Below are positions 10,334 through 33,468 of a DNA stretch of 64,000 nt, one piece after another (within the stretch, counting starts at the first letter, position 1; every line of letters begins with the position of its first letter). The translations under genes were made by a program, and so were the position numbers. This DNA comes from an uncultured Acidimicrobiia bacterium (GTDB taxonomy: Bacteria; Actinomycetota; Acidimicrobiia; Spongiisociales; JAENVV01), in contig CAVVWO010000005.1 in the NCBI GenBank assembly GCA_963752075.1, positions 30,523-94,522 of the forward strand, written 5' to 3'. Under the pieces are notes generated by a model. That model did not search any database, was not told the DNA's origin, and worked only from the letters and a program-made list of their open reading frames with translations.

Positions 10334-10392
10334 ACCCATGGAAACCGTCACTCCGTGATCCGAACGGCCGACGCGAGCCGTATGCTCCGCTG

Positions 10393-13089: not shown

Positions 13090-13124
13090 ACCAGTGCCCC
13101 CATTAGTCCGTAGTGAAAGAGACC

Positions 13125-15883: not shown

Positions 15884-16728
15884 ACACAGAAGAGCTCATC
15901 GAGGCCGTCACGCGGGAGGTGTTGACTGCCCTCTCCGGGCGGGATCCCTGTGAGGACTGTCACGGGAGTTGCGCGGCCCACAGCCCGGACAAGGTGAGGT
16001 CCGTCGTCGCAAACGGGGCTGATCGTGTTTCGTATCGGGGCGAGGGCTCCGAGGTTCCGCTCGACCTCGCCAAATACATCGACCACACGCTCCTCAAGCC
16101 CGACGCCACCGCCGATGACATCGATCAGCTCTGCTCAGAAGCGGCCGAGTACGGATTCGCCTCGGTTTGTGTCAATCCGGCCTGGGTGAAACGGGCCGCC
16201 ACGAACCTACGTGGTACCGAGGTCCGCGTGGCCTCCGTCGTGGGTTTCCCGTTCGGCGCCACCACGTCGGATATCAAGGCCATGGAGACGCGACGGGTCT
16301 TGCGGGACGGTGCCAGGGAGATCGACATGGTGATCAACATCGGAGCTCTCAAATCCGGTCAACACGATGTGGTTCGAGAAGACATCGCCAAGGTCTCCGA
16401 CGCCTGCCACGAAGTCGGGGCGATCAACAAAGTGATCATCGAGACCACCCTCCTCGACGACAAGGAGAAAGTCATCGCCTCCCATCTCGCCAAAGAGGCC
16501 AAGGCCGATTTCGTCAAGACCTCGACCGGTTACGCCGGGGGTGGCGCCACCATCGCCGACGTGCTCCTCATGCGTGAGACGGTGGGTCCGAACATGGGCA
16601 TCAAGGCATCCGGCGGAGTGCGAAATCGAGAAGATGCCGAAGAGATGATCGCGGCGGGTGCCACCAGGATCGGCGCCTCGGCGGGCATCGCCATCGTGAC
16701 GGGAGGAACCTCGAGTGAGCAATATTGA
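15880..16728 (+). CDS. deoC: Deoxyribose-phosphate aldolase with N-terminal extension
   Basis: [21 protein letters not shown], the Schiff-base region [10 protein letters not shown] and [11 protein letters not shown] overlaps the rpiB stop (ATGA). The N-terminus is [18 protein letters not shown]. Confidence 0.9.
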
Positions 16729-17341
16729 ACTACGGTCCTATGCGTTCTTGGACAGCCTGCAACCGCAGTACGCAGCCTTCATCGGCACGACTGCGCCCGG
16801 GTTCTTGCCGTTGGCAGGCGAGGCGTCCCTGTTCGTGGAAATCTCGCCCGGGATCGAGATCAACCGCCTCACCGATGTGGCGCTCAAATCCAACAAGGTC
16901 AAACCAGGCATGCAGATCGTCGAGCGGTACTTCGGCCTCCTCGAGATCCACTCTCCGGAACAGGCCGAAACCCGGGGCGCCGGTGAGGCCATCCTCGAGG
17001 CGTGCGGGCTGACGGAGGTAGACCGGATCAAGCCGCGCATCCTCTCGAGTCAGATCGTTCGCCGTATCGATGACCATCAGGCGCAACTCATCAATCGCAT
17101 GCGCCATGGGCAGATGATCATTCCCGGTCAGACGCTGTACGTGATGGAATGCGAACCCGCCGCCTACGCGGCGTTGGCGACCAACGAGGCCGAGAAGGCC
17201 TCCAACATCAACGTGCTCGAGGTGCGGGCATTTGGCGCCATGGGGCGGCTCTATCTCGGTGGAGAGGAAGCGGACGTCGAGGTCGGGTGGCAGGCTGCGG
17301 TGGCGGCGTTGGAAGGTCTCGAAGGACGAGAAGCGAAGTAG
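16715..17341 (+). CDS. BMC-T shell protein, permuted tandem-domain type (CsoS1D/HO-T2/T3-like)
   Basis: 208 aa. [21 protein letters not shown]...[21 protein letters not shown] and [41 protein letters not shown] closely resemble the Haliangium double-stacking BMC-T proteins, from memory. Confidence 0.85.
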
Positions 17342-17379
17342 TCGAAAAGGTATCGAGAAGAAGAAACGAGGAGGAACAC

Positions 17380-17670
17380 ATGGCCGATGCTCTGGGAATG
17401 ATCGAGGCGCGCAGCTTCCCGGCGATGGTGGAAGCAGCCGACGCCATGGTGAAGGCTGCCAAAGTGGAGCTGGTCTCCTACGAGGAGACAGGCGGCGGGT
17501 ACGTGACCGCCATCATTCGAGGTGACGTTGCCGCGGTGAAAGCCGCCGTGGATGCCGGAGTGCGCGGCGCCGAACGGGTCGGTGAAGTCATTGCCACCCA
17601 CATCATCGCCCGCCCCCACGCCAACATCGACGCCATCCTGCCTCTGGGGCGCGCCGACGCGGCAGAGTAG
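17380..17670 (+). CDS. BMC-H hexameric shell protein (Pfam00936 type)
   Basis: ALGMIEARSFPAMVEAADAMVKAAKVELVSYEETGGGYVTAIIRGDVAAVKAAV. An RBS GAGGAGGA lies upstream. Confidence 0.92.
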   Translation: MADALGMIEARSFPAMVEAADAMVKAAKVELVSYEETGGGYVTAIIRGDVAAVKAAVDAGVRGAERVGEVIATHIIARPHANIDAILPLGRADAAE

Positions 17671-17685
17671 GAAAGGGAGTCCCGC

Positions 17686-17973
17686 ATGCTGCTCGGACGA
17701 GTCGCCGGCACGCTGGTGGCCAGCCGCAAGGAGTCGCGTCTCGACGGACTCAAATTCCTGGTGCTGGCCCAGCTGGATATCGACAACGCCGAGACCGGCT
17801 CGTACGTGGTGGCAGCAGACGCCGTCGGCGCCGGAGTCGGGGAGGTGGTCCTGTACGCCAGCGGAAGCTCAGCCCGGCAGACCGAGTACACCCACGAACG
17901 ACCCGTCGACGCAGTGGTCATGGCGATCGTCGATACCTGGGAAGTTGCCGGAGTGGATCGGTATAGCAAGTAG
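17686..17973 (+). CDS. BMC-P pentameric vertex protein (EutN/CcmL family), paralog 1
   Basis: [15 protein letters not shown]...LKFLVLAQL...[23 protein letters not shown]...[10 protein letters not shown]. Confidence 0.9.
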
Positions 17974-17976
17974 ACG

Positions 17977-19436
17977 ATGAGCGGCCTCAGCGAAGTTGAA
18001 ATCCAGGCAATCATCGACCGAGTCCAGCAACGACTCGGCGATGTTTCCTCGCGGTCTCGGCCGGCGGCATCTCTGGCTGCCCAGACAGAACTCGATGCGG
18101 CGGTGCAACTCGGCGACGGAATCTACCGCACCATCGATGAGGCGGTCGCGGCCGCCAAGCGAGCGCAGGCGCTGTACTCCGAGATGGGGCTGGGAGCTCG
18201 GTACGAGATCATCGACGCGGTGCGTCGAGCCATGCTCGAGCAGGCAGAACACCTGGCCATGCTCGCCCACACCGAGACGGGGCTTGGTCGCTACGAGGAC
18301 AAGGTCCGCAAGAACCGACTGGTGACCACCAAGGCCCCCGGTCCGGAGGACCTCGAGCCGCAGGCCGTGACCGGTGATGGCGGCATGGCCGTCATGGAGT
18401 GGGCGCCGGTCGGCCTCGTCGGGGCAATCACTCCTACCACGAACCCCACTTCCACCATCATCAACAACACGATCTCGATCGTGTCGGCAGGAAACGCAGT
18501 GGTGTTCAACGTCCATCCCGGGGCGAAGAACGTCTCGGCCGAGAACGTGCGCTTGCTCAATCGCGCCATCGTCGGCGCCGGCGGGCCGCCCGATCTCGTG
18601 ACGGCGATCCCCGCTCCGACCATCGACAGCGCCAAAGAACTCATGCAGCATCCCGACGTTCGGGTCTTGCTCGTGACGGGTGGTCCGGGAGTGGTGCGCG
18701 AAGCGCTCAAGACGGACAAACGGGCGGTTGCCGCGGGACCAGGCAACCCTCCTGCCGTCGTCGATGAGACAGCCGACATCGAGCGCGCCGCGCGCTGTAT
18801 CGTCGCCGGCGCTTCCTTCGACAACAACATCATCTGTACCGACGAGAAGCTGGCGATCGTCGTCGAGTCCGTCGCCGACCGCCTGGTCCGGGAAATGGCA
18901 AGGCCGGGGCCTACGTGTTGAAACAGCACGAGCTGCAGCGGCTCGAGCGAGTCATCTTTCGAGAGATGGGCCAGCCGAACAAGCCGGGCGTGATCAATCC
19001 GGCCTGGATCGGCAAGAACGCCTCGGTGATTCTCGCCCAGATCGGCGTACAGCTCGATGAGGATGTGCGACTGGTCGTCGCCGAGGTGCCGGTCGAGCAC
19101 AGCCTGGTTTGGACTGAGCAGATGATGCCGGTTTTCCCGGTGGTCCGCGTGCCGAACGTGGATGCCGGTATCGATTTGGCCGTGCGGGCCGAGCATGGTT
19201 TCCGTCACACGGCAGGTATCCATTCGACGAATGTGGAAACGATCACCCGAATGGCCCGTGCCATGAACTGTTCGATCTTCGTGGCGAATGCATCGTTTTT
19301 CGCCGGCCTGGGCGAAGGCGGCGAGGGTTACTCCTCCTTCTCGATCGCTTCACCCAGCGGGGATGGCTTGACCAGGCCCCGCACCTTCTCACGTCCCCGG
19401 CGGGTGACCGTCGTGGGGGCGCTCCGTATTGTCTGA
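17977..19436 (+). CDS. Acylating (CoA-dependent) aldehyde dehydrogenase, PduP/EutE type, with N-terminal extension (one apparent frameshift near 18900)
   Basis: ORF 17977..18921 joined to ORF 18915..19436. Motifs ITPTTNPTST, VVFNVHPGAK, GPGNPPAVVDETADI and NIICTDEK (catalytic Cys). The N-terminus is SEVEIQAIIDRVQQRL. Confidence 0.85.
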
Positions 19437-20043
19437 TGCGACGCACATGACCACGGAAAGCTCCTTGCGGCCCGCCATAGCCCTTCTCGAATTCGACTCG
19501 ATCGCGGCAGGAATAGAGGCAGGCGACGCCATGGTGAAGCGCTCGCCTCTCGATGTTCTCTTGGCCGGCACGGTGCAGCCGGGCAAATACCTCGTCCTTG
19601 TGGGAGGTCAGGTTGCCGATGTCGAGGAGGCCGTGGATGCCGGTCGCCAGGTGGCCGCGCAGCATCTCCTGGACGAGGTCTTCCTGGCCGATATCCACCC
19701 GCGAGTGGTCGAGGCTCTGGTCGGAACTCGGATGGAGGGATCCGGCGAGGCGCTCGGAATCATCGAAACCGCCACCGTGGCCGCAGTGATCGAGGCAGCC
19801 GATGCCGGGGTCAAAGGAGCGGTCGTGACCCTGCGAGAGATCCGGCTTGCCGATGGTCTTGGCGGCAAGGCCTATCTCTTGTTTGACGGGGAGGTCGGCG
19901 AGGTCGAAGCGTCGGTGGATCTCGGGACGGCTCGCATTCCCGGTCAGGTCCTGGGAAGCCGCGTGATCGCCCAACTGCATCCGGAGATGGACGAGAATCT
20001 GGCGGCCGACGGACGGTTCGCCCGCAGGATCAGGGGACGGTGA
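19429..20043 (+). CDS. BMC-T shell protein, tandem-domain single-layer type (PduT/HO-T1-like)
   Basis: Two BMC domains: AIALLEFDSIAAGIEAGDAMVKRSP and ALGIIETATVAAVIEAADAGVKGA. The start is TTG 19429 or ATG 19447. Confidence 0.85.
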   Translation: MSDATHMTTESSLRPAIALLEFDSIAAGIEAGDAMVKRSPLDVLLAGTVQPGKYLVLVGGQVADVEEAVDAGRQVAAQHLLDEVFLADIHPRVVEALVGTRMEGSGEALGIIETATVAAVIEAADAGVKGAVVTLREIRLADGLGGKAYLLFDGEVGEVEASVDLGTARIPGQVLGSRVIAQLHPEMDENLAADGRFARRIRGR

Positions 20044-20047
20044 CGGC

Positions 20048-20365
20048 GTGCACTTGGGGCGAGTGATCGGCACCGTCGTGGCAACGACCAGGACCCCGGA
20101 CCTCGACGGGGTCAAATTCCTGATTGTTCAGCCGCTCACCCGACAGCTCGAGCCGAGCGGCCGCCCGGTGGTGGCCGCCGACGGCGTTGCGATGGCCGGA
20201 CCCGAAGAGCTCGTTTACTTCGTCGGAAGTCGCGAGGCGGCTCAAGCGATGCCGGAGCCGTTCGTGCCGGTTGACCATGCCATCGTGGGCATCGTCGATG
20301 CCGTGGACCTGATCGAGGCGCCGGCCGGTCCCGCCAAGCGCCCAACGAGGAAGAAGAAGTCGTGA
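20048..20365 (+). CDS. BMC-P pentameric vertex protein, paralog 2
   Basis: MHLGRVIGTVVATTRTPDLDGVKFLIVQPL...VDHAIVGIVD, with a basic C-terminal tail. Confidence 0.88.
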   Translation: MHLGRVIGTVVATTRTPDLDGVKFLIVQPLTRQLEPSGRPVVAADGVAMAGPEELVYFVGSREAAQAMPEPFVPVDHAIVGIVDAVDLIEAPAGPAKRPTRKKKS

Positions 20366-20637
20366 AGGTGGCCCGCGTCTCGGGGACGGTGGTCTCGACC
20401 ATCTCGGCGCCGGTCTTCGGCGGCCGGCAACTTCTGCTGTGCGATTACGTGCACCCCGACGGCACCGCCACTGGCGACTACACCATTGCGGTCAACGTGG
20501 TGGGAGCGGGCGTCGGGGAGACCGTGCTGATCCTCGATGAGGGCACCGGCGCTCGTCAGATTCTCGGCGAGACGGTGGCTCCGGTGCGGGCTGTCGTGGT
20601 CGGGATCGTCGACGAACTCGAGATGAGCGGGACCTGA
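20362..20637 (+). CDS. BMC-P pentameric vertex protein, paralog 3
   Basis: MKVARVSGTVVSTI...LLLCDYVHPDG...AVNVVGAGVGETVLILDEGTGARQ...VRAVVVGIVDE. The GTG start overlaps the upstream stop. Confidence 0.88.
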   Translation: MKVARVSGTVVSTISAPVFGGRQLLLCDYVHPDGTATGDYTIAVNVVGAGVGETVLILDEGTGARQILGETVAPVRAVVVGIVDELEMSGT

Positions 20638-20657
20638 CCCCTTTCCATCGAGGGTGC
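20427..20657 (+). repeat. Left copy of a direct repeat (3' two-thirds of BMC-P paralog 3 plus 20 nt downstream)
   Basis: By hand alignment this matches 29325-29519. A 104-nt core (20528-20631 vs 29390-29493) is identical. The flanks carry a few substitutions, and the left copy has 36 nt that are missing from the right copy. Confidence 0.85.
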
Positions 20658-20668: not shown

Positions 20669-20873
20669 GGTTGGCAACGCCAACGACACTGGCCGGGTAT
20701 GCCGAAAACCGCTGTGGCAATGTAGGTAGGCGTTTTTGACGATCGCTGGACCAGCTAGCGGCGCGGTCGACCACCCACGGAATGCGGTCGCGAAAACTTC
20801 CACCCGCAGCCGAGTGGGTTTGGTGCTAGATCTTGGTCTTGGGGCGCAGGGGGCACCGGAACGAGGGGGAAGC

Positions 20874-23800
20874 ATGGCCGGCAGTGAGCGGACCGATTTC
20901 GCGGTAGCGGTGGACCTCGACCGATTCGCGGCGGGTTGGCGGCTCCTCCTCGGGCGACCCGATGTCATCGACCTCGGTGATTTGATTGGCCCCCGGCGCC
21001 GAGTGCCAGACATCGTCGTCGATGTGATGCGCTCCGAGGACCTGGCGGCCTTCACGGTGGAGGGATACGATCTCGAGCTGGTGGTCGGAGACGCACCGAT
21101 CCTGCGTCCCACGCCGGACAACGACGGGCTTCTGCTCGTCCGTTTCCCGTTCCAAAACCTCGCCGAGGACGCCATCTATGAGACTCCCGAGGGTGGTCGA
21201 CCGCCTCAGGTGCCGCACCCGGACGACCCGACGCTCCCGCCGATCGACGATCCGGATTTCGACCCTTCGGACGCCCGACCCGTGCCCCCGATCGATGCCC
21301 GGCCTGCCAAGAACAGCCGGCTCGTTTTTCGTGTTCCGCAAGGGGACGAGATCGAGTTCAGCACGCAGGGCATCCTCGATGCCATGGGTGACCTCGAGAT
21401 GGTGGTGCATTCGCTCGCCATGCCGCGCCCACCGGCCCTGCCCGGTCCGATCGAAGGTCCCATTTTCGAACTGCCGGGCGGCTTCACCGGGGTGCTGGCG
21501 ACCGATGGCCTGATCGTTCGTGCCGGCACCGAAGACATCGTCCGGGGAGAGGCGACCCCGGCCGAAGCGTTGAGCGCCCATGCACGCGACGCCCGCCGCG
21601 CTCGCGCCATCCTCTCGACACGGGCAGGCTTGGTGATCGGCGCCGACCTGAAAGTCGACGCATCCGACGTCCGATCCTTCACGATCGGCGGTGTAGAGGT
21701 GACGGTGCCTGGCTCGATGGTGGGAAGCGATCTGATCCTCCCTGATCTCGGCGTGAAAGTCCGGCCTCGGAAACGCCTGAGCAAGCCAGCCGCCCAACTC
21801 GAAACCGCCATCGAAGCCCCGTTCCGACTCATCATTTCGCCCAGCGACCAGGGCGGATGGGCGCATTCCAACCTCCCCGTCGCGGCCGGGGACGCTCCCC
21901 ACCGGGTGGAACTCTGGCACAGTCGGCTCGGAGTGCGGGTCGACTCCGGCGATGAGGTTGCTGTCGACGAACGTGCCAATCGACAGCGGATCGTGCGCGC
22001 CATATGGACCAGAGACCGGGAACGGTTCCCGGATTGGCAAGACCCGGCGAATCAGCCGGACCACGATCACGATCCCTTCAGAACCTCACTCGATGGCGCC
22101 GACCGTCACATGTTGGTGCGACAGACTGCTGAGACGTGGATTGGCGTCGGAAATCGCACGATCAGCCCGGTACCGGCCGATGCCACGGGCCTCTTTCTCT
22201 CCAGCCTCGGCGCCTGGGTCGACTTGCACGGAACGTGGACGACGGCGCCGTATTCGGAGGCAGGACTCGAATCGATCCTGCTGTGGGATCACGTGGCGCC
22301 GATGGGACGGGATCAGTTCGTTCGTGTCATGTACCCGGGGTATCTGTACCCGTTCGGCCACAAGGCAACGCTCGTCAAGGTGACCGAACGGAAGATGAAG
22401 GACGCCTCGCCATCGATCGCCAGTCTCTACCAACGAATGTTCATCGTGGTCGGTGAGGCCCTCAAGACCTTCTCGCAACGCGATCTCCCGTTTGATGAGG
22501 TGCGCCTTTCGCCCCTGGTCACCCCGACCATCGACGATCCTGGCACCGCCAACCTCAACAAATTCTTCTTCCCTTCTGTCGGCGGCATCGATTTCCCGTT
22601 CAATCTCCACACGGTCGACCGGGAAGGAACCCCCATCAGCCTCGTTGCCCCACTCATGTGGGTGGCCGAGTCTTTCGGAAGCAACGCGACCAACAGAACG
22701 GCAGTCGATTCCGCCTATGCGTCGAGTCCGAACAGCACCATCTCGGCCGGTGGTCAAAAGATCGCCTACGCGCCCGTCAAGAAGGGCGGCGACACCGTGT
22801 CCACGACCACGACGCTGAAGATGGCCGGAGCGGCATCGACGACGTCCGCCACTCCGAAGCTCGCCACGGCGAGCGTCGTCCTCCCGGCCGTCGAGCAGCT
22901 TTCGCCCGTTGGAGACGTGGTCATCCAATACGCCCAGACGTACCTCGGCAACGGTTTCGGCGGCACCGCCAACTCCGGAGACGTGTGGGCTGAACTCACC
23001 GGCGTCATCCCCAATCTCGCCTTTGGAGGCAACGGAGCGGGCAGCGACAAAGCGGGCGGGTTTCTTCAGCCCAACATGGCGATCAAAGGCTTGTCTCGCA
23101 TCAGCGGAACCGTCGGCGACGTGGCCGGCGCCGCCACCCAGACGTTTGATCCTGCCCAATTCCTGGCATCCGGCGTGGATCTCCCCAAGCTGTTCGGAGT
23201 GGTCGAGTTGCTCGACCTCATCGAGCTGGTCGTAGGCGATCTCGATCGAGCACCAAGCATCGTCTCCGAAGCCCTCGACCGAATCGAAGGCTTCGTTGCC
23301 GATCTGGAGCGAGCCAAGAAGATGGTGGAAGATGCCGTCGCCGAGGCCCAGAAGCTCGTCGACAGAGCCGCCAACAAAGCAGCCGAACTGCAGACCCAAG
23401 CCCAGCAGGCTCTCACCGCTGCGCAGAATCTCCAGGGGACCATCGAGGCGGCCGTCGACGACATCCTCGATCAGATCGCCGCTCTCCCCGGTGCCACCGA
23501 GGCCGCAGTGCAAGCCGCGCTTGCCAATCCTCTCCAGGCACTCAAGACCGCCACCACGGAGATGGAACAGGTCGCCCCACTGCTGCCGCCTCTCATCCGC
23601 CAGCAGCTGCTCAATCTGGCCAAGATCCTGCGGACCATCGCTGACGCCGTCGATATCGTCACGGACATCTATCGGTTCCTCAACGGGTTCGGGACCAGCG
23701 CAGTGATGGCTTCGTTCCGATTCGAGTGGAAGCCACCGATGAAGTCGTGGCCGAATGCCAACGATCCGATTCTGGCTCTCCAGGAAGACAGCTTGGTTTT

Positions 23801-24710
23801 GGCGGTCGAGGGCCGGGTGTCGGGCAAGGGCGAGATGGGGATCGAGGTGCTCGCCGAGCTGCGCGACTTCGTCCTTCACCTCCTACCGGCGGCTCCTCTG
23901 GTGCGGTTCAAGTTCGACCACCTCGCTTTCCGAGCCGGGTCGAGCGGCAAGCCAGAGGTCGATGTCGTCCTGCAAGACATCGAGTTCGTCGGGATTCTCT
24001 CGTTCATCGAGGTCCTCAAGGAGCTGATTCCGTTCGATGGCTTCTCCGACCCGCCGTTCCTCGAGATCGACGCCTCGGGTTTGACGGCCGGATTCACGCT
24101 CGACCTGCCCAACGTCGCCATCGGGGTGTTCAACCTCTCCAACATGTCGCTGGGCGCCGACATCCAGGTTCCCTTCCTGGGAAAGTCGGTCACCGTCGGA
24201 TTCAACTTCTGCACGCGCGAACGCCCGATGACACTCACCGTGATGGCCATCGGCGGCGGCGGCTGGTTCATGATCCGCCTGGCGCCCGACGGGCTCGACG
24301 TGCTGGAACTGGGTCTCGAGGCCGGCGCCGCTCTGGCCGTCGATTTCGGTGTGGCGTCCGGCTCCATCTCAGCCATGATCGGTATCTACATGCGGCTCGA
24401 GGGCGACACAGGCTCGTTGACCGGCTACTTCAGGTTGCGCGGCGAAGTCGATGTGCTTGGCTTGATCTCGGCTTCGATCGAGCTCTACCTCGAGCTCGTT
24501 TACGAGTTCGACAGCGGGAAGATGATCGGCTCCGCCCGATTGACGGTGAAGGTCGAGGTCTTGTTCTTCTCTGCCTCGGTCACCATCGAATGCGAACGGC
24601 GTTTCGCCGGCTCCAACGGCGATCCGAGCTTCCTCGACATCATGGGCCTGGAACCCGACGGTTCCTCGCCAGCCTGGTCGGAATACTGCCTCGCCTTCGC
24701 AGGAGCGTAG
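20874..24710 (+). CDS. Giant hypothetical protein 1 (1278 aa): Pro/Asp-rich N-terminal region, central coiled coil, Gly-rich hydrophobic beta-like C-terminus
   Basis: Uninterrupted ORF 20736..24710. ATG 20874 is preceded by GAGGGGGA. I saw no signal peptide and no named domain. Details are in the findings. Confidence 0.8.
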   Translation: MAGSERTDFAVAVDLDRFAAGWRLLLGRPDVIDLGDLIGPRRRVPDIVVDVMRSEDLAAFTVEGYDLELVVGDAPILRPTPDNDGLLLVRFPFQNLAEDAIYETPEGGRPPQVPHPDDPTLPPIDDPDFDPSDARPVPPIDARPAKNSRLVFRVPQGDEIEFSTQGILDAMGDLEMVVHSLAMPRPPALPGPIEGPIFELPGGFTGVLATDGLIVRAGTEDIVRGEATPAEALSAHARDARRARAILSTRAGLVIGADLKVDASDVRSFTIGGVEVTVPGSMVGSDLILPDLGVKVRPRKRLSKPAAQLETAIEAPFRLIISPSDQGGWAHSNLPVAAGDAPHRVELWHSRLGVRVDSGDEVAVDERANRQRIVRAIWTRDRERFPDWQDPANQPDHDHDPFRTSLDGADRHMLVRQTAETWIGVGNRTISPVPADATGLFLSSLGAWVDLHGTWTTAPYSEAGLESILLWDHVAPMGRDQFVRVMYPGYLYPFGHKATLVKVTERKMKDASPSIASLYQRMFIVVGEALKTFSQRDLPFDEVRLSPLVTPTIDDPGTANLNKFFFPSVGGIDFPFNLHTVDREGTPISLVAPLMWVAESFGSNATNRTAVDSAYASSPNSTISAGGQKIAYAPVKKGGDTVSTTTTLKMAGAASTTSATPKLATASVVLPAVEQLSPVGDVVIQYAQTYLGNGFGGTANSGDVWAELTGVIPNLAFGGNGAGSDKAGGFLQPNMAIKGLSRISGTVGDVAGAATQTFDPAQFLASGVDLPKLFGVVELLDLIELVVGDLDRAPSIVSEALDRIEGFVADLERAKKMVEDAVAEAQKLVDRAANKAAELQTQAQQALTAAQNLQGTIEAAVDDILDQIAALPGATEAAVQAALANPLQALKTATTEMEQVAPLLPPLIRQQLLNLAKILRTIADAVDIVTDIYRFLNGFGTSAVMASFRFEWKPPMKSWPNANDPILALQEDSLVLAVEGRVSGKGEMGIEVLAELRDFVLHLLPAAPLVRFKFDHLAFRAGSSGKPEVDVVLQDIEFVGILSFIEVLKELIPFDGFSDPPFLEIDASGLTAGFTLDLPNVAIGVFNLSNMSLGADIQVPFLGKSVTVGFNFCTRERPMTLTVMAIGGGGWFMIRLAPDGLDVLELGLEAGAALAVDFGVASGSISAMIGIYMRLEGDTGSLTGYFRLRGEVDVLGLISASIELYLELVYEFDSGKMIGSARLTVKVEVLFFSASVTIECERRFAGSNGDPSFLDIMGLEPDGSSPAWSEYCLAFAGA

Positions 24711-24714
24711 AACC

Positions 24715-27700
24715 ATGGTCACGGAACGATTCCAAGCGGTTGCTCTCCCCAAGACCCACGTCGAGGGGGCCCCCTTCCACGTCTCGGTGTTCGTCGGACC
24801 GGACCTGACTCCTGACGGCGCCGAGGGGGCACTCGACGATTTCAAACACTTTCCGCATTGGGCGGCCCTTCTCCGCGACGGCGGCGCCGACGTCGAACTG
24901 CGCGACCAGGACGGACCCATCGAGGTTGTCCCCCTTCTCGACCAGATTTCTACAAAGATCTGGGATGCGCTCTTCCCGCCCGACACGCCGGTTCGGGGCA
25001 AGGATGCGCCGGATTTCGCGAGTCGGCAATGGCGGACGTTCCGGGCCGCAGTTCCCCACGACGGCGCCAAGCTCATGCATGTCGTGGCGATGTTCGCCGA
25101 CCCCACCACGCCACCCGTGCCGAGCCGCCACCCCCTTGGCATTCTGCTCGGGCGGTTGAACGAGTTCCTTTCCGACAGAGACAACTTCCAGGGCAGGGAC
25201 TGGGATGAGTCGATCATCACCCGGGCGCTCGACCGAGCGGTCGGCGAAGGAGACCGGAAGCAGAGTCTCAGCCAGATCGAGAAGTCGATCGGGGCGCTCG
25301 ATCCTGTCTCACGGTTGACTCAGGAAATGCATCGGGCGCGACGCTTCTACGAGCGACCGGAGTCGGCTGCCGAGTACCGGGAACGTCCGATCGAGGGCTA
25401 TACCACTCCGCTTCCGCCTCGACCGGAGCCCGACTTCCACGAGCGTTGTGCGCTGGTTGCCGACAATCCGAGCCTCCAACGTCTGCTCGGCCTCGGTGGT
25501 GGACCTCAAGGTTGCCGAGCCGGGCCGGCTGGAGAAGAGCGACTGGATCTCGGCGCAGGATCATCCCGCAGGGAGATACGGCGGCCAGCCAGACCTCGAG
25601 AACCAGGGTGGCGGTCGCTGACGATGACCTCGTCACGGTGGCCGCTTCGAACGACTGGATCGAGGAGCGACTTCAGCTCGGCGACACCGATCGGTATGCG
25701 GTGCTGGATATGGACCCTGACGGGTCGGCCCTCAAGCTCGACCGGTTCTTGTGGTCGATGCCGCGTCTCCTCAAGGTGGAAGATGATGGCGGGCCGATCA
25801 ACGCCGCGCCGGCAGCCTTGCGGTCGATCGGTTTCACTATCGTCCGCCACCAAAAAGGGCTCGAAACCCAGAGTCGGATGTCCCGCCAGGTCAGCCTCTC
25901 CAACGCACCCGGTGCCCAGCCGCTTCTCAACACCGAGGACGTCACCCAGGGGCTCCGGGTCGACGTGTGGGATGACACGGCCAAAGCCTGGTACTCGCTG
26001 CATGCCCGCAGGATCGAGGCGGAGATCGTTGGCCACGGCGCCGTGGTCGAGGACGAGGCGGAAGAAGGCTTTGTCCAGGGCACCACCCTCACCGAAACGG
26101 TCGGCGTGGAAGACAGCCCCGTGCACGTTCACGAAGCGGTATTCGGCTGGCAGGGATGGAGTCTCAGCGCGACCCGACCCGGAAAGCGGGTCCGCCACGA
26201 GAACGGCGAAGAAATCGTCGAAGATCCCGATGTAGACCCCGACCCCATCACCCCGCTGGTGGTCGAGACGAGAGCCGAGCCCGGATCCCTTCCGCGATTG
26301 CGCTACGGCCGGTCCTACGCCTTCCGCGCCTGGGCCGTCGATCTGGCCGGAAACAGTCGCAGTCGCGACCTCGGGTCGCCGCCTCCTCCTCCACTCGCAG
26401 CGGTCAACGCCTTGACGTCTGCGATGGGCGCCGGCGGGGAGGTTCCGAACAGCGCCGCTCATCTGCTGCCGATCCTTCGGGCCGACACTGCTGCGGTGCT
26501 GATGCGAGACCGCCTCCAACCGGTCGAGCCGGCCACGCCGACGGTACCGATCGGATTCAAGATCGTCGACCAGCCTGATATCGACGATGCAATCGTGCGC
26601 CGCATTCGTGCTCGCCGGCCCGAAGCGGCACGCCCGAGATCTGGTGAGGCAAGTGGGTTCTCCACCCGGAGAGCCTCGGTGGTGGGAGCCTCGTTCGCCG
26701 ACGTGGCCCTCGATCAGACACAGCCCTTCATGGTGGACACCGGGGTCGTCGATCCTGAGGTGCTCGCCCACGCGTTGCCGCTGCCATCGGATATCGAAAC
26801 GATCCCGAACTATCTCAACACCGTCACGGCGCTCCGCCCCTTCCTCCGGTGGGATCCCGTTCAGCCGCCCACGGTCGTGGCGCGTCATGCGTATTCCGAG
26901 GGTGAGTCGCTTCTCCGGCTGGTGGTGCGCTCGGGTGTCACACAGGACCTCGACACTCTGGAGCTGACAGTGACCCGTCCGGACGTGTACGGACCTGCGA
27001 ACGGATACCGCGGAACCAGCGAACGTCACGTGGCGCCTCCCAAGACGAGCCAGACGGAGGCCGAAACACATGGAGCCTTCGATGCGGCCATCGGGTCCAC
27101 CAACCCGGCCGACCATGCGTTGCTCCTGGGTTCGGCGATCCGCGAGAAGGGGACCTGGTTTGACACCGAGGTCATCCGCCTCGACGACCCGACCACTGCC
27201 GATCCGCAGGCGGGGATCGCCCTCGCCAACGATCCCGATGTTCCGCCTTCGACCATGAAGGCACTCCCTCTGCCTCAGGGCGAGATGCCCGCCACCGGCC
27301 AGTACATCGTCCACGACACCGACGAGCCAGTGTGTTGCCCTATCTGCCCGATGTGGTGCGCGCGTGGCATCTCGTTGGTGTTCCAGGAGGCGGGTCAGGA
27401 CCGCCAGATCATCTTCCCGTTCGGCACGGAAGGCTTCACCGCTCGGTATCGGGGGACGTGGCCAGCGCGCGAACCCTTCCGTCTCGTTCTCGGCGACAGC
27501 AGTGAGGTTCGTGGTCGGACTGTCGGGACGCACCCTCGAGATCGGTCTCCCGCCCGGGCGACGTACAGCGTTTCCGGCTCGCCTCGTCGCTGGATCCGGA
27601 GGACCTCGAACTGTTCGGACTCTGGCGGATCTTGCCGCCGATCCTGCGGGACAATCCCGACATCATCGAAGCGGCCGCCGACGGATGGCTGTGGGCGTTC

Positions 27701-29267
27701 ACGCCCTTCGACCAGGTCACGTTGGTGCATGCAGTGCCCCGTCCTCTCGAAGCGCCTCGCCCGACCATCCTGCGCGCCCTGCGCCTCGAGGAGGGCGCCA
27801 CGGACGCTTTCCTCGCCGGCGCCGTCGACATCCACGGGCCGAGCACCGATTCGCTGACGGCCGAAGTGTCGTGGGTCGACCAGGTCGACGATCTGAGTCT
27901 GCCCGCCCCCGAGGAGCGGGCCGAGACCGGCGTCGCTTTCACCACGCAGGTCCGGACTGAGGAGGATCTGGCGGTATTGGGTGGCGGACCGGAGGACGTT
28001 CGCCTGGTGGTGCCCGGATTTGGGCCGGTCTGGGTCCACAGCGCGTTGCACAAACTCAACGACACCCGCCACCGCAACATCACCTATCGGTTCCGAGCCG
28101 CCACCCGCTTCCGCGAATACTTCGACCCAGCCGCCTTGGCTCCCAGCGGCGACACCACCGCCGACGGGGTGGCGGACGACGGGCAGAGCGTGCTTGGTCC
28201 GGCAACGGTCTTGTCCGTGCCCGAGCTCGGCCAAGCCGGCCGCTCCGGTGGTTCATTCGGTGATCCCCCTGTTCCGATGGGACGCCGGAACCGAACCGGA
28301 GCAGCCGATGGCGACCCGCCGCCGGCGGCGGGCCGGTGTGCGGATCTATCTGGAGCGACCATGGTTTTCGTCGGGCGAGAACGAGCTGCTCGGGGTATTG
28401 GTCGCTCGTCGCGGCGACGATTCCAACGTGGACGGGCTGGTGAGTCAATGGGGTGCGGATCCGATTTGGGTCGCCGACCAGGTCGATCGTCGAGCCATGT
28501 TCCTCGAGTTCGACGATCTGATGCGGCTCTCCGGTCTCGACGACCGTCCAGGCGACGCCATGCCGGTGGTTCCACCCGCCGAGCACCCGTTGGCCACCGA
28601 GCCGGGATCGCCGGTGGTCGGTGTGCTCGGATACCGCCCACAGTTCAATGTCGAGCGGGGCCTCTGGTATGTCGACGTGGCCCTCGATCCGACCACCAAG
28701 TTCTGGCCGTTCGTCAGGTTGGCGGTGGCGAGGTACCAACCGGAGAGCATTGCTGGATGCCATCTCTCCAAACCGGTCCGGTGCGACTTCGTGCAGCTCA
28801 CCCCAGAACGAACCACGAGCGTCAGCCGCACCGACGTCCGGCACGTCCGGGTGGTGGTGAGCGGTCCGGTTGGCGTGCGCGACGGTCTCGAGTCAGACGC
28901 CGGCGTGTTTCCTGGACCGCTGCAGCTTCCGGCCGCCGTGGCAGCGAACCGGACCGTGATAGCCCGCCTCCAGCGACGGGACCCGCAGATTCCGACCGAC
29001 CTTGGTTGGGCGACGGTCGATACGGTCGAGCTCGACGTCCGCGGTTTGGCAGGCAGCGTCTTTTCGCCTGCATGGGTCGGTTCCCTCGCCTCGCCGGTCA
29101 ACATCCCGCTCCGTCGTCCGGGCGGGGGGAGTACCTGGCGGGTCGTCGTCGAAGAGTGGGAGCGACTCGAGGGCGACCCGGCCACCCTCGGCGCCACGAC
29201 TGGCCGCCGACCGCCGCCACCGGTCTGGGAACAACGCCTCATCTACGCAGACGAGGTTGCCCTCTGA
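24715..29267 (+). CDS. Giant hypothetical protein 2 (about 1517 aa), read through five apparent +1 frame changes
   Basis: ATG lies 4 nt after the stop of giant 1. The segments are 24715-25497, a short piece VVDLKVAEPGRLEKSDWISAQ, 25560-27505 (ORF 25446..27857), a short piece VVGLSGRTLEIGLPPG, 27556-28220 (ORF 27632..) and 28220-29267 (ORF 27981..29267). Plausible protein sequence continues across every junction. Confidence 0.7.
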
Positions 29268-29274
29268 CGTCCCG

Positions 29275-29499
29275 ATGTTCCGACGATCCGGAAATGCCGG
29301 CCAACATCCGTCCGCCACGGGACCGCAACTTCTGCTGTGCGGCTACGTGCACCCCGACGGCACCGCCTCGGGCGACGGGGAGACCGTGTTGATCCTCGAT
29401 GAGGGCACCGGCGCTCGTCAGATTCTCGGCGAGACGGTGGCTCCGGTGCGGGCTGTCGTGGTCGGGATCGTCGACGAACTCGAGATGAGCGGGGCCTGA
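29275..29499 (+). pseudogene. Truncated BMC-P remnant (copy of the paralog 3 C-terminus with a 12-codon in-frame deletion)
   Basis: Translation ...QLLLCGYVHPDGTASGD-GETVLILDEGTGARQILGETVAPVRAVVVGIVDELEMSGA, compared with paralog 3 QLLLCDYVHPDGTATGDYTIAVNVVGAGVGETVL... It lacks the conserved N-terminal strand and the VGAGVGE segment. Confidence 0.75.
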
Positions 29500-29519
29500 T
29501 CCCTTTCCATCGAGGGTGC
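29325..29519 (+). repeat. Right copy of the BMC-P-derived direct repeat
   Basis: See 20427-20657. Similarity ends at ...cgagggtgc on both sides. Confidence 0.85.
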
Positions 29520-29695
29520 TTGGAGACGCAGGGCTTGGTCGAAGCTGGAGAAAAGGGCCGGGGCCTTGCCCATCATCGTTGGATTCGGTTTGTGGCGGGG
29601 CTAGGGTCGACGTCGTTCGTCTGACCCTCCACGACTGGCATGCCGATCCATCGCACTCCGTACTGTCCAGCGCAACTGAGAGACCCTGCGGGCTC

Positions 29696-31198
29696 GTGAG
29701 AAGCTTCATTCCGTCCCTTTCGAGTCTCTCGCGCTACGCTGCCGCCCTCGTCGGATTAGCTGCGCCCACCCTCTTTTTTTGGGGCACCTATCGAAGCTCG
29801 GCGGCGTGGTTTCCGGTTCCGCCGATTCCCTGGTCCCACTTGATGGCCTCACTCGTCCTTGCGGTGATCGCCGATCTCGTCATAGCTTTCGTCCTGGTAC
29901 GGCTCGGTAGCTCGCTTTCCGACGCTGTCGTCGCAGCGGTTATCCCCGTCTGGTTTTTGTTCTTCTACTCGCGGACGTTGATAGGACTGTCCATCGTTAC
30001 GTTCGAGGTTGTCTCGCTCCGTTGGCTGAGATTCCTGTTCTGGCTACTCCTCCTTGGTCTCGTGGCGCTTGTTTCGAAGGCTGTGCAGCGCGGGAACGGA
30101 CCGGTTATCGCGGCAGCCGTCGCCGTGTTCGGGGTTGCTTCCATCGCCCAACATGCTCATGCACTGATTGCTCCGCCGTCGGTGCAGCCCGCCCCGGCGT
30201 CCTTCACGATCACCGAGGAGAAGAATGTGTGGGTCCTCGTCTTCGACGAACTGGCGTCACCGTTGTTCCTAGGGCGGTACGCGACCGATCCGCCCCAGAT
30301 CGTCAAGATGCTCGAGAACCAGGGATTCGAAGTTCCTCTGGCGCCAGTGAGTCCGTACAGCCAGACCTACCCTGCCCTCACCTCGATCTTCACCTTGGAC
30401 CCGGTGCGACCGGGTATCTATGGAGAGGATGACTGGGCGGCCAGATCAGCGGTCTTCGGCGGTGACCATCCGCTCGCCCGCTCCTATGTCGACGAAGGGA
30501 GGCCGGTGGTTCTCGTGGAGGCTCCAATTTCGCCGGGATATTGCAGCGACATCGTCACTGACTGCCACCCTGCCCTGCTGGACGATTTCGACAGGTTCTT
30601 GATCGCAAATACGGCCCTCTTCGAGCTGCCCGGTTCGTGGAGGAGCTGGGCCGAACAGGGGCTCGCCCAGATGGATCGACTCGATGAGGTCGCACAGGAA
30701 GGAGGAACGGGTCGGTTGATCCTGGCGCATGTCATGCTCGCCCACGGGCCCTACCTTCTCGATTCCGCCTGCAACACCTCTCTTCCCTCTGTGTACTCCT
30801 CGGAGAAGTACATGGATCAGGTCGGGTGTCTGGGCTCGAGGCTGTCGAAGCTCGTCTCGGTGATTCCACCCGACGATGTGGTGTTGATCCTCAGTGATCA
30901 TGGGATCACCCGCGCCGAGCCATATCCGATGGATACGCCCGAGGCTCGGGAGGAGCGTCTGGTGTCGTTTGTCGCCCTGAGAGGGTGTCAACCATCCGAC
31001 GAGTATCTCGACTCCAACGTCAACGCCTACCGGGCACTGGTCAATTGCGTTACGACGGCATCGCTGGAGCCTGTCGTGGTGCCCCCAACCCTCACCTGCT
31101 ACCTGGGGAAAGACACCATCGAACTTGTCGAGATTCCGAAGGGTGTTCCTACAGACCCGGTTGAATGCCGGGAGGGTTCACGGAATGTGGGTTCATGA
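29696..31198 (+). CDS. Membrane protein with C-terminal sulfatase/alkaline-phosphatase-superfamily-like domain
   Basis: ORF 29516..31198. It has about 5 N-terminal TM helices, then VWVLVFDELASP, LILAHVMLAHGPYLLD and VLILSDHGI, motifs typical of LTA-synthase or phosphoethanolamine-transferase-like enzymes. The start is uncertain (GTG 29696). Confidence 0.6.
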   Translation: MRSFIPSLSSLSRYAAALVGLAAPTLFFWGTYRSSAAWFPVPPIPWSHLMASLVLAVIADLVIAFVLVRLGSSLSDAVVAAVIPVWFLFFYSRTLIGLSIVTFEVVSLRWLRFLFWLLLLGLVALVSKAVQRGNGPVIAAAVAVFGVASIAQHAHALIAPPSVQPAPASFTITEEKNVWVLVFDELASPLFLGRYATDPPQIVKMLENQGFEVPLAPVSPYSQTYPALTSIFTLDPVRPGIYGEDDWAARSAVFGGDHPLARSYVDEGRPVVLVEAPISPGYCSDIVTDCHPALLDDFDRFLIANTALFELPGSWRSWAEQGLAQMDRLDEVAQEGGTGRLILAHVMLAHGPYLLDSACNTSLPSVYSSEKYMDQVGCLGSRLSKLVSVIPPDDVVLILSDHGITRAEPYPMDTPEAREERLVSFVALRGCQPSDEYLDSNVNAYRALVNCVTTASLEPVVVPPTLTCYLGKDTIELVEIPKGVPTDPVECREGSRNVGS

Positions 31199-31258
31199 CC
31201 ATGGACAGCGGTCAAGGTTGGCGGTAAGCTGAGAGCCACCAGCAAACAGGGGTTCCCA

Positions 31259-31420
31259 ATGCGGTTGTTCTCATACATCGATCCTGCGGCCGGGGGTCTT
31301 CTGATTCAGGTTCTTCTCGGCGGAACAGCCGGAGTCCTGGCGCTGTTTCGCGGCAAGATTCGCCGCCTCTTCAAGAGCGGTAGCGAAGCGACCGTCCTTC
31401 CCGCCGACCGCGAGTCGTAG
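31259..31420 (+). CDS. Small (53 aa) hydrophobic protein
   Basis: Hand-found ORF below the track cutoff: MRLFSYIDPAAGGLLIQVLLGGTAGVLALFRGKIRRLFKSGSEATVLPADRES. It has one TM helix followed by a basic tail. Confidence 0.4.
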   Translation: MRLFSYIDPAAGGLLIQVLLGGTAGVLALFRGKIRRLFKSGSEATVLPADRES

Positions 31421-31449
31421 CGACCAAACACGGCTCTCGAATCAGGGTC

Positions 31450-32703
31450 TCAACGAAGAGGCATCTCTTCGACCTCGGTGGCTTCCGGCATGGATTCGGC
31501 GTGATGACGCTCGAACCAGTCGGCGTAGCGTCTTGAGAGCGGCACTGCGGTCAGGCCGTGGAGGAAGACACTGGCGAGGACCGTCCAGATCACCACGAGA
31601 AGAAGGTCGTCGCCCATCGGTAGTTCTGCTTCTTCCAGGATGAAGAGCCCGAAGAGGATCGAAGCCAAGCCGCGTGGCCCGAACCACGCCACGAAGGCGA
31701 CCGTCTGGAACCTCAGTCCGGCGCCGATCATGCTCAGCGCCACTGGTGCCATCCGGACGAAGGTGAGGCTGAGGAGAGCGTAGAGGCCGATCCTCCATGT
31801 CAATTGGTCGAGCGCCGGGCCCGCCATGGCGGCTCCGAAGAACAAGAAGGTCAGCAACGAGAGGAGCTGCCCTTGGTCTTCGGCGAAGTCGTGGACGGTC
31901 GGGCACTGATCCCGGGCTGCCTCACCGAAAGCCAAGCCAGCCACGAAGGCGGCCACAAAACCGTTGCCGCCCGCCGCTTCTGCCCCGGCGAACGCCGCCA
32001 CCCCAACCGCCAAGGCTGACAATTGGCGGAAGGCCCCGTCCATCCAGTTGCGGGCAGAGAACCATTCGATGAGTTTCCCGCCTCCATAGCCAACGATGAC
32101 GGCGATCAGGACGCCGAATCCGATTTGGCGAACGGTGAACCGAGCCCAGAAGGAGGGTGTCTCCAGGTCGACTCCGGTCGCGGCAAGCGCCAGGAACAGG
32201 GTGATGACGGGGAGCATGATGCCGTCGTTCAAGCCGCTTTCGACGTTGAGTGCCTGGCGGACGCGAACCGGAACCCGCCGGTTGGAGACCACTGCTTGCC
32301 CGAGCGCTGCGTCGGTAGGAGAGAGAATGGCGGCGACCAGCGCCGCTTCCCAGATTCCAAACCCCGGCAGAATCGCCAAGGCCGCCGCAGCTCCGCTGAT
32401 CACCGTGAGTGGCAATCCGAGCCCCAGCAATCGTGCCGGGAGGTCTATCTGGCGCCGCAGTCGGCTCAAGTCGATTCGGATCGCATCGGTGAACAGCAGC
32501 AAGACCAGCGTCGCCTCGGCCAGGACGCGAACGGCTCCGTCGTCCATGCCCAGATCCAGGATATCCAGGCCAGGTGGCCCGAGGATGATTCCGGCCGTCA
32601 CGAACACCATTGGCCCGGTGACGGGCGTGGTCTCCAGTCGGCGCGAGACGAGCGCATATGCGATGACGAACACGGCGAGGATGGCCAGTCCGGCTATCTC
32701 CAT
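31450..32703 (-). CDS. Na+/H+ (cation:proton) antiporter, CPA1 family
   Basis: MEIAGLAILAVFVIAYALVSRRL, ILSPTDAALG, ESGLNDGIMLP and a polytopic profile. ATG at the complement of 32701-32703. Confidence 0.85.
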   Translation of the reverse strand: MEIAGLAILAVFVIAYALVSRRLETTPVTGPMVFVTAGIILGPPGLDILDLGMDDGAVRVLAEATLVLLLFTDAIRIDLSRLRRQIDLPARLLGLGLPLTVISGAAAALAILPGFGIWEAALVAAILSPTDAALGQAVVSNRRVPVRVRQALNVESGLNDGIMLPVITLFLALAATGVDLETPSFWARFTVRQIGFGVLIAVIVGYGGGKLIEWFSARNWMDGAFRQLSALAVGVAAFAGAEAAGGNGFVAAFVAGLAFGEAARDQCPTVHDFAEDQGQLLSLLTFLFFGAAMAGPALDQLTWRIGLYALLSLTFVRMAPVALSMIGAGLRFQTVAFVAWFGPRGLASILFGLFILEEAELPMGDDLLLVVIWTVLASVFLHGLTAVPLSRRYADWFERHHAESMPEATEVEEMPLR

Positions 32704-32828
32704 GGGCCGTGAGCCCGAGCAGAACCAAGAGTTCCGGCGCGAAAATCGGGGAGAGAGACAGGAGCGAGCACTGGCCGTGAGGCTACCCGCCGGGTGAACT
32801 CCGAGGCTGCTCACAAGAGTTTCTGGTA

Positions 32829-32854
32829 ACCTGCCTAACGCTTGTTAGGTGGGT
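32829..32854. promoter_or_regulatory. Imperfect 26-bp palindrome, candidate TetR operator
   Basis: ACCTGCCTAAC-gctt-GTTAGGTGGGT, with a perfect CCTAAC/GTTAGG core. It lies between the divergent antiporter and TetR genes. Confidence 0.45.
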
Positions 32855-32857
32855 TCC

Positions 32858-33464
32858 ATGGTCACAACGCAAACCGATGGTCGGCAGCGCCTGCTCGAAG
32901 TGGGCGCCGATCTCTTCCATGACCGTGGCTACACCGAGACCACCCTTCGAGACATCGCTCAACAGGCAGGGATGAAGGCCGGTTCGATCTACTACCACTT
33001 CGCGTCCAAGGACCATTTGCTGACCGAGGTACTACGCATCGGCATGGCAGCCATCACCGATGCCTTCCTAGCCGCTGCCGATGCTCGGACGTCGGACGCT
33101 GCCGACGCGCTTGCGGGCGGCGATCTCAGCCCACATGGAGGCGCTCTTTCGGCATGGACCGTTCACGACTGCTCATGTCAGCGTCCTGGGGCGCGCTCCC
33201 AAAGCAGTCCGCGACCAGATCGTTCCCCTTCGCGACGCCTACGAGTCACTCTGGACCCAACTTCTCTCAGAGCTCCGAGACGAGGGCGCTCTTCGTCCCT
33301 CGCTCGACGTTCGTTTCGTTCGCCTCAACTTGCTGGGCGCCATGAACAGCTCGTTGGAGTGGTTCGACCCGGCAGGGGAGCAGCCCCTCGAGATGCTGAT
33401 CGATCACCTGGTCGATCAGTTCTGGGCAGGACTCGCCAAATCAGACCTCACACAGGAGAATTGA
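32858..33464 (+). CDS. TetR-family transcriptional regulator (apparent frameshift near 33110)
   Basis: HTH RLLEVGADLFHDRGYTETTLRDIAQQAGMKAGSIYYHFASKDHLL. The C-terminal domain is in ORF 33081..33464. Confidence 0.8.
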
Positions 33465-33468
33465 CCCG

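Follow-up and report, generated by a model that had tools for sequence, protein, structure and literature searches.

The window analysed here, a stretch of 64,000 nucleotides from an uncultured Acidimicrobiia bacterium (GenBank assembly GCA_963752075.1, contig CAVVWO010000005.1), carries two giant coupled genes, called A and B below, past the end of a bacterial microcompartment (BMC) operon. The question that this locus raises is whether the pair belongs to the microcompartment or is something else. We find that A and B make up an autonomous two-gene operon and belong to a very large family that has no name as yet. This family is real, is strongly constrained and fits no known kind of system among those compared.

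Reading of the frames bears out the gene structures proposed in an initial annotation made from the sequence of the window. Gene A is a single reading frame of 1278 codons, preceded by a ribosome-binding-site-like GAGGGGGA at 20863-20870, and it begins 236 nt past the end of the last BMC-P gene (20637), the spacing first reported. Gene B opens 4 nt past the stop of A, with a ribosome-binding-site-like AGGAG of its own lying within the last codons of A (24701-24705), and a three-frame reading follows it through five phase changes to its terminal TGA (Table 1). Window B aligns to a hidden Markov model (HMM) of 36 intact homologues over profile positions 1-1512, and also aligns by tblastn with an intact homologue of 1524 aa; its repaired product of ~1512 aa has no internal stops. 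The GC content of both genes is similar to that of neighbouring genes, as had been noted, and a motif scan of A and B detected no P-loop, HExxH or YD repeat, in agreement with the earlier account, and no LPXTG or thioester motif.

That the two proteins belong to no recognisable family, as first judged, holds across Pfam, NCBIfam, PADLOC, PHROGs and PDB profiles. Searches of the first four libraries with A, the pieces of window B and intact B homologues gave only coiled-coil noise and one Big_2 domain; the queries also took in long variants with an N-terminal extension, and distant homologues of Bacillus, Cupriavidus, Rhizobium and Streptomyces. The database matches of A are confined to its helical-bundle region and are all weak coiled-coil noise. 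In PADLOC-DB v2 these are coiled-coil matches to ZorA and JetC, with none for B, and PHROGs returned coiled-coil noise only. The Pfam and PDB-sequence profile searches gave no true relative of either protein, and in the latter A returned coiled-coil noise only and B nothing at E up to 10.

More than 500 homologues of A are found at 52-63% identity, all 'hypothetical' and mostly from metagenome-assembled genomes (MAGs) of Acidimicrobiia and other Actinomycetota, and the observation is therefore far beyond chance. When A residues 300-1278 were used as a profile against 1.84 billion cluster representatives, the family comprised at least 4280 clusters (50% identity) at E<=1e-3 and 1910 at E<=1e-30. 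A scan of one genome per species gave 114 loci, 80 of which were kept. These belong to Acidimicrobiia, Gaiellaceae, Micropruina, Microbacterium, Nocardioides, Leifsonia, Herbiconiux, Streptomyces, Tsukamurella and Phycicoccus, and a few to Sphingomonas, Burkholderiales, Lysobacterales, Myxococcales, Methylomirabilota and Verrucomicrobiota. A tblastn search of plasmids adds the chromid of Cupriavidus metallidurans CH34, Rhizobium and Streptomyces plasmids, and megaplasmids of the Bacillus cereus group. In all, the pair is found in Actinomycetota, Proteobacteria, Bacillota and further groups, and the replicons that carry it are chromosomes, chromids and megaplasmids.

Among ~90 related loci, B directly follows A in every one that is sufficiently long. 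The two genes overlap or nearly abut, always in the order A then B, and this order holds in distant shorter versions too (~1000 plus 1100-1400 aa). All-against-all clustering found no third conserved partner gene, recovering only A, B and a genus-level synteny in Micropruina, where the surroundings of the pair are stable across a dozen species; the 128 nearest flanking genes match 169 Pfam families, each at most four times. Gene order and spacing support the view that A and B are an obligate, translationally coupled pair, and the retention of the pair in all these loci likewise supports the earlier suggestion, drawn from a 4-nt gap and matched size, of a two-protein complex. Common descent of A and B as ancient paralogues was ruled out by BLASTP and hhalign.

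Three individual loci are worth recording. In Streptomyces sp. NPDC001717 (L044), a second A-like sequence (21612-23870) lies ~3 kb downstream of the first A-B pair, and some genomes may therefore carry tandem paralogous copies. In L085 (10001-13087 and 14532-17908), a B-like gene without a detectable upstream A sits beside a DDE transposase and two reverse-transcriptase (RVT_1) genes; the region may be a mobile or conflict one, and the gene a copy that has been disrupted. The only A-B pair found on a predicted viral contig comes from IMG/VR (L157, 2920-6065 and 8787-16584). A large terminase gene and a capsid-like gene are encoded on the opposite strand at a distance of 2.7 kb, and the pair could be prophage cargo or the product of an overcalled prophage boundary.

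Constraint on the pair was measured against L090, a contig of a relative that covers the same region at 85% DNA identity. The ratio of nonsynonymous to synonymous substitution rates (dN/dS) between the two is 0.081 for A and 0.084 for B; the A-B pair is under strong purifying selection. In the family alignments, six blocks that the initial annotation had singled out as conserved-looking proved to be conserved consensus blocks, and they rank with the most strongly conserved parts of the two proteins.

The BMC operon upstream is complete and runs in the order RpiB, DeoC-type aldolase, a 222-aa protein, BMC-H, BMC-P, aldehyde dehydrogenase, a two-domain BMC protein and two BMC-P genes. The same order is seen in ~45 of 65 homologous metagenome loci (L091-L133), and the set of DeoC-type aldolase, RpiB-type isomerase and aldehyde dehydrogenase resembles the sugar-phosphate-utilising (SPU) loci of Axen et al. 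(PMC4207490). The conserved 222-aa protein (16676-17335) gives a weak BMC-domain match.

One of two readings offered at the outset made the pair a new BMC-associated component, that is, a scaffold, positioning factor, cargo organiser or shell partner co-transcribed with the operon. The genes do lie on the same strand, 236 nt after the last BMC-P gene with no terminator-like site found in between, and the near relative L090 has the same adjacency. However, L090 is the only locus that shares it. None of 82 A-B loci has homologues of BMC-H, BMC-P, DeoC, RpiB or the aldehyde dehydrogenase within 10 kb, and neither A nor B occurs in any of the 65 homologous BMC loci, ~15 of which extend 2.5-9 kb past the last BMC-P gene; the pair thus shows no association with shell genes in either direction. 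It is also present in Bacillus, Cupriavidus, Rhizobium and Streptomyces replicons, and its annotated flanks in Bacillus, Rhizobium and Streptomyces list no BMC genes. The shell domains PF00936 and PF03319 are absent from A, the window B pieces and intact B homologues, and the upstream shell genes were detected normally. Together with a duplicated BMC-P fragment at its flanks, which suggests insertion, this evidence largely refutes the reading as a BMC component and leaves it an extremely low probability. Lists of the components of sugar-phosphate-type microcompartments should not include A-B.

The other initial reading, an unrelated module that recombined into the locus, is supported by that same duplication. 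The 8.7-kb A-B segment lies between the complete BMC-P gene and its truncated duplicate, and the right copy of the resulting direct repeat begins 52 nt past the stop of B and ends where an open reading frame (ORF) at 29516-31198 starts. The repeat looks like an insertion or recombination scar, and this arrangement gives good support to the view that the pair was inserted by recombination at the end of a pre-existing BMC operon. Beyond the duplicate come that ORF, which encodes a 560-aa hydrophobic membrane-type protein without a Pfam match, and a Na+/H+ exchanger on the minus strand (31450-32814). L090 lacks both the scar and the next 3.1 kb (window ~29300-32432, holding the BMC-P remnant, the 560-aa ORF and the Na+/H+ exchanger), and its B is followed directly by TetR, acyl-CoA dehydrogenase and PAP2 genes (window 32849-35333). 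A single-crossover (Campbell-type) integration of a circular fragment would yield the observed repeat pattern; alternatively, the pattern could have arisen by insertion followed by a 3.1-kb deletion in the line of L090. An 'empty site', in which BMC-P is followed directly by the 560-aa ORF, was not found in the metagenome contigs, among which the ORF 29780-31195 has no relatives. A chimeric assembly join could also lie behind the arrangement. Scans for promoters and terminators at both ends of the pair returned nothing.

The five phase changes in B raise the question of whether the gene is intact. Its pieces occupy frames mod1 (24715 to ~25490), mod2 (to ~25555), mod0 (to ~27516), mod1 (to ~27552), mod2 (to ~28222) and mod0 (to the TGA at 29265-29267), and base-level alignment identifies all five breaks as 1-nt G/C insertions without counterpart in L090. 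That contig has indels of its own at other sites, five in A and one in B; the two assemblies break different genes of the same pair, B in the window and A in L090. Breaks also occur outside the pair. The aldehyde dehydrogenase gene of the window BMC operon (17977-19436) shifts frame at ~18909, as comparison with an intact homologue of 483 aa shows, an ABC permease falls into two ORFs (59645-60364 and 60755-61300) that hold TM_PBP2_N and BPD_transp_1 separately, and the acyl-CoA dehydrogenase of L090 is split. Several other long-read-style MAG contigs also carry a split B or A. Within the pieces of window B there are no in-frame stops, and intact B of 1480-1620 aa occurs in at least 36 homologues, taken as full-length sequences from the retrieved A-B loci. 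Because L090 breaks elsewhere, other window genes are broken, dN/dS is low and stops are lacking, the five breaks are probably single-base insertion errors of an indel-prone assembly, and the real gene is probably intact.

What weighs against this explanation is the distribution of the breaks: all five fall in B and none in A, which has a chance of ~0.05 if errors are random over both genes (0.54^5). This imbalance, with all five changes in one direction, is what B would show as a genuine, recently inactivated pseudogene in a module decaying in this genome. However, B has no excess of amino-acid change over A by the dN/dS values above, its pieces are free of stops, and L090 reverses the pattern, with A broken and B nearly intact. 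Unrelated genes are broken in both contigs, and similar breaks are seen in other long-read-style MAG contigs. We therefore regard inactivation as very unlikely; for frameshifted giant genes in such contigs, the label of pseudogene needs a read check first.

Predicted structures were obtained for both proteins with AlphaFold. The model of A (residues 79-1278, 120 homologues; predicted local distance difference test [pLDDT] 79, predicted template modelling score [pTM] 0.71) shows four regions. A variable N-terminal part is followed by a large, very confident beta-rich core with most of the invariant residues, then by a helical bundle, and the C-terminal domain consists of long strands. B was modelled as homologue P0125 over profile positions 367-1512 (pLDDT 89, pTM 0.74); here beta-sandwich domains form a chain, into which ~100 helical residues are inserted. 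Foldseek comparison of the whole models, both against the PDB and A also against BFVD, gave no true structural relative of these confident models, as no match to A or B has a TM-score above ~0.14 to 0.3. The best PDB match of A is a weak one to lipovitellin (E 2.6e-4, TM-score ~0.1, probability <=0.25). The leading matches, all weak, are lipovitellin, MTP, ApoB100, TamB, OrfX1-OrfX3, LptD and porins, and their common theme is lipid- or membrane-associated beta-sheets. Against viral predicted structures, the best matches of A are to host-specificity protein J and to tail and tail-fibre proteins; their probability reaches 0.99, but the TM-score is ~0.1. B matches generic proteins with multiple immunoglobulin (Ig) or macroglobulin (MG) domains, namely mastigoneme, integrin, alpha-2-macroglobulin (A2M), C3, C5, ICAM-5 and arrestin.

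Family alignments of A show dozens of invariant His, Asp, Arg, Glu and Trp residues in the core, with the motifs ELWHSRLG, WxRDRE, DRHMLVRQ, YPGYLxPFGH and LVKxTERK. The helical bundle is missing or divergent in a shorter subfamily (Bacillus and L083 homologues; HMM gaps in L083 and L087); since distant members lack it, the bundle is not essential to the core function of the family. The C-terminal domain carries an invariant GGGGWF. Residues ~1076-1121 of A are almost invariant, yet their placement in the model is of low confidence, which could mean that the segment takes on its fold only within a complex or in a different state. In B, the block LPRLRYGRSYAFRAWAVDLAGNS presumably resembles the end motif of a fibronectin-III-type beta-sandwich (Y-x-F-R-x-x-A-x-D/N-x-x-G-N-S).

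The reported lack of a signal peptide and transmembrane helix is confirmed for window A, and neither window protein has an S/T-R-R-x-F-L-K-type motif followed by a hydrophobic stretch. Convincing signals for twin-arginine translocation (Tat) were found in seven of ~267 A-family proteins and in a Streptomyces plasmid copy, one of them with a lipobox. In L156 (2441-7400), A has a Tat signal and a lipobox and adjoins a tatA gene, and in L158 (9001-18544) an A with a Tat signal is followed by a B without one. In approximately 25 homologues of B, nothing extends the N-terminus beyond profile position 1, at which they start, and B therefore seems never to carry a signal of its own. This arrangement fits the export of a pre-formed A-B complex, an idea that draws on Tat 'hitchhiker' export, known for example for hydrogenase small and large subunits.

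A tatA-like gene lies immediately upstream in L156 and L083 (5858-6085 in L083), and the A-family proteins with Tat signals include that at 11455-14763 of L089. As a general partner gene tatA was ruled out, being present in only two of ~90 loci.

Tentatively, we take A-B to be an autonomous module unrelated to the BMC whose products form a heteromeric complex engaging the membrane or envelope, a reading that we consider possible but short of probable. A and B would fold in the cytoplasm into the complex. B, an Ig-, fibronectin type III (FN3)- or macroglobulin-like beta-sandwich chain, would act as the binding or scaffold subunit, and A would engage a membrane or lipid surface, with its C-terminal amphipathic beta-strands and invariant Gly-rich hydrophobic segment assigned to membrane contact. 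Where A has a Tat signal, the pre-assembled complex would be exported with B as passenger; in the lineage of the window, where neither protein is signalled, its site of action would be the cytoplasmic side, unless another route releases it. The evidence hints faintly at this mechanism of complex, subunit roles and export. Since no match exceeds a TM-score of ~0.14 to 0.3, the assignment to membrane or lipid is based on the length of the strands, their amphipathic pattern and what the weak matches have in common. A bolder version, in which A-B is a new class of bacterial two-protein machine built on new folds (an Ig-array subunit plus a giant amphipathic beta-sheet subunit), appears doubtful. 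Such a machine would assemble in the cytoplasm, in some lineages leave it as a complex by the Tat route, and act at a membrane by remodelling it, perforating it or carrying lipid; it would stand for unannotated genes in thousands of lineages. Several observations weigh against a membrane-engaging complex: the lack of any closer structural match, the absence of an export signal or transmembrane helix from most family members, that of the window included, the absence of the helical bundle from distant members, and the invariant His, Asp, Arg and Glu residues of the A core, which suit an enzyme equally well.

The last point leads to a different possibility, that A-B is a housekeeping-type cytoplasmic enzyme or structural complex, for example one acting on an intracellular polymer or at the inner face of the envelope, with the A core as a new catalytic fold. 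The dozens of invariant residues, a dN/dS of 0.08, the lack of export signals in most members and an apparently vertical inheritance within genera are all consistent with this, and Tat export is also common for folded enzymes. However, no known catalytic motif or fold was found, metabolic genes are not conserved beside the pair, and an Ig-like array such as that of B is unusual in cytoplasmic enzymes. We judge this possibility unlikely.

Phage structural proteins typically have Ig-like arrays and lack a signal peptide, and B has such an array. The pair might then be a signal-less binary toxin or adhesin directed against other organisms, released by lysis or another route, perhaps derived from phage tail-tip or fibre proteins and working in the manner of Tc toxins or tailocins. 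The viral-structure matches of A to protein J, tail-fibre and tail proteins would agree with such an origin, as would the homologues on Bacillus cereus-group megaplasmids. Yet tblastn against 50,697 phage genomes gave no match, PHROGs gave none above coiled-coil noise, and the pair occurs on one IMG/VR contig only. Pfam families of Tc, RHS and extracellular contractile injection (eCIS) systems (VRP1, TcA_TcB_BD, SpvB, integrin-like, RHS/YD) are unmatched at E up to 1, neither a lysis cassette nor further tail genes are conserved around the pair, and many free-living soil and sludge Actinomycetota carry the pair with stable synteny. Overall, a toxin or adhesin appears improbable.

A two-gene anti-phage defence system of the abortive-infection kind, in which the Ig-like array of B senses a phage structural protein and A kills by membrane damage, would account for the patchy spread across phyla, plasmids and chromids included. 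Some loci lie amid toxin-antitoxin, transposase, reverse transcriptase, patatin, CHAT and NB-ARC genes, and one copy is 2.7 kb from prophage terminase and capsid genes. Nevertheless, neither protein matches PADLOC, and only ~8% of the 128 immediate neighbours match defence models, many of them generic. Synteny that is stable over a dozen Micropruina species, very high sequence conservation and the absence of a nuclease, NTPase or other usual defence domain also argue against it, and the Tat-exported variants are hard to square with an intracellular sensor. Defence is thus quite improbable, and we retain the membrane- or envelope-engaging complex as our preferred reading.

If the pair is as it seems, it represents an unnamed family of at least 4000 sequence clusters in which both proteins exceed 1200 residues under strong constraint, hosted by soil, sludge and plant-associated bacteria. 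Culturable carriers include Cupriavidus metallidurans CH34, Bacillus wiedmannii PL1, Micropruina glycogenica JCM 10248, Nocardioides limicola and Leifsonia sp. Root227, as well as Microbacterium and Herbiconiux isolates, so that the pair is directly testable. Once its function is named, thousands of 'hypothetical proteins' would gain an annotation, and both a new fold and a new type of complex active at the envelope or membrane could be added.

The coordinates of the features are collected in Table 1. Elsewhere in the window, an ECF-type (extracytoplasmic function) sigma factor (Sigma70_r2/r4) and then an RskA-type anti-sigma factor (12460-13769) are situated upstream of the BMC operon and of an EamA transporter, and 10330-11967 holds a GMC oxidoreductase. 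The match of a luciferase-like monooxygenase (49753-50676) ends at profile position 229 of 314, so that this gene, too, looks frameshifted. On the minus strand, a 387-aa ORF (35929-37092) gives a weak partial aldehyde-dehydrogenase match (profile positions 125-273 of 461) and abuts the ORF 35335-35928; this may be another broken gene.

Table 1 Coordinates of the A-B pair, its parts and its surroundings in the window.
Feature	Position	Strand	Description
BMC operon	15284-20637		Sugar-phosphate-type (SPU-like), complete
Left direct-repeat copy	20422-20657	+	Last 216 nt (3' two-thirds) of last BMC-P gene (20362-20637) plus ~20 nt
Gene A	20874-24710	+	1278 aa, intact; start ATG 20874, stop TAG 24708-24710, one open frame
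A conserved beta-rich core	21807-23267	+	aa ~312-798; retained in distant homologues; AlphaFold pLDDT mostly >90
Conserved block of A	22332-22394
A helical bundle	23280-23681	+	aa ~803-936; four to five long Ala/Gln/Glu-rich helices (AlphaFold)
A C-terminal domain	23703-24605	+	aa ~944-1244; long amphipathic beta-strands of 14-18 residues (AlphaFold)
GGGGWF of A	24252-24269		Invariant; in C-terminal domain
Gene B	24715-29267	+	~1512 aa through five +1 frame changes; start ATG 24715, stop TGA 29265-29267
Frame break 1	25491	+	mod1 to mod2; extra C in CTCGG[C]CTCGG relative to L090
Frame break 2	25555	+	mod2 to mod0; extra G in TCGGC[G]CAGG relative to L090
Conserved block of B	26142-26192
B block LPRLRYGRSYAFRAWAVDLAGNS	26289-26357	+	Family consensus, conserved block; model shows beta-sandwich arrays
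Frame break 3	27517	+	mod0 to mod1; extra G in GGTC[G]GACTG relative to L090
Frame break 4	27553	+	mod1 to mod2; extra C in CCCG[C]CCGGG relative to L090
Frame break 5	28223	+	mod2 to mod0; extra G in GCCC[G]AGCTC relative to L090
Conserved block of B	28341-28403
Conserved block of B	28443-28469
Conserved block of B	28704-28748
Right direct-repeat copy	29320-29519	+	5'-truncated BMC-P remnant with 12-codon deletion, 89-97% identical to left copy

Comparison with known systems yields partial likenesses. Tc and other signal-less multi-subunit toxins are also very large proteins encoded by adjacent coupled genes without a Sec signal, and Tc toxins share with A-B beta-rich domains of receptor-binding type, a putative membrane-engaging part and an occurrence on plasmids of soil bacteria. 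In contrast to them, A-B has no sequence matches to TcA/TcB/TcC, SpvB or RHS/YD, Foldseek recovered no cocoon or channel fold, the subunits number two instead of three, and the pair is common in non-pathogenic Actinomycetota. Siphophage tail tips, with protein J and Ig-decorated fibres, resemble A-B in that they supply the best viral-library matches of A and in that B is a signal-less Ig/FN3-like string. However, the TM-score is ~0.1, neither phage genomes nor PHROGs contain a match, and tape measure, tube, baseplate and lysis genes are not near A-B.

With alpha-2-macroglobulin and complement C3, B shares MG-type chains of similar overall size, and nine of its 35 top PDB matches are A2M, C3, C5 or TEP. 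The likeness is limited to generic beta-sandwich chains: B has no A2M or MG Pfam domain and no CxEQ thioester motif, its model lacks a helical toroid the size of a thioester domain, and most members lack a lipoprotein signal. Lipovitellin, MTP and ApoB, TamB/AsmA, LptD and porins recall A in its long amphipathic strands of 14-18 residues and its whole-chain order of beta, helical and beta regions. Against this, the E-values are marginal (best 2.6e-4) at a TM-score of ~0.1, and A matches none of the Pfam families Vitellogenin_N, DUF1943 and AsmA/DUF490; A has no signal peptide, and the pair is present in monoderm bacteria.

The Tat 'hitchhiker' complexes, such as the hydrogenase subunits, differ from A-B in that only a minority of the A-B family has a signal, that co-export of A-B is conjectural and that no cofactor-binding motif is known in the pair. 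They resemble it in the division of labour between subunits: in L156 and L158 only A is twin-arginine-signalled, and the B that is coupled to it is not.

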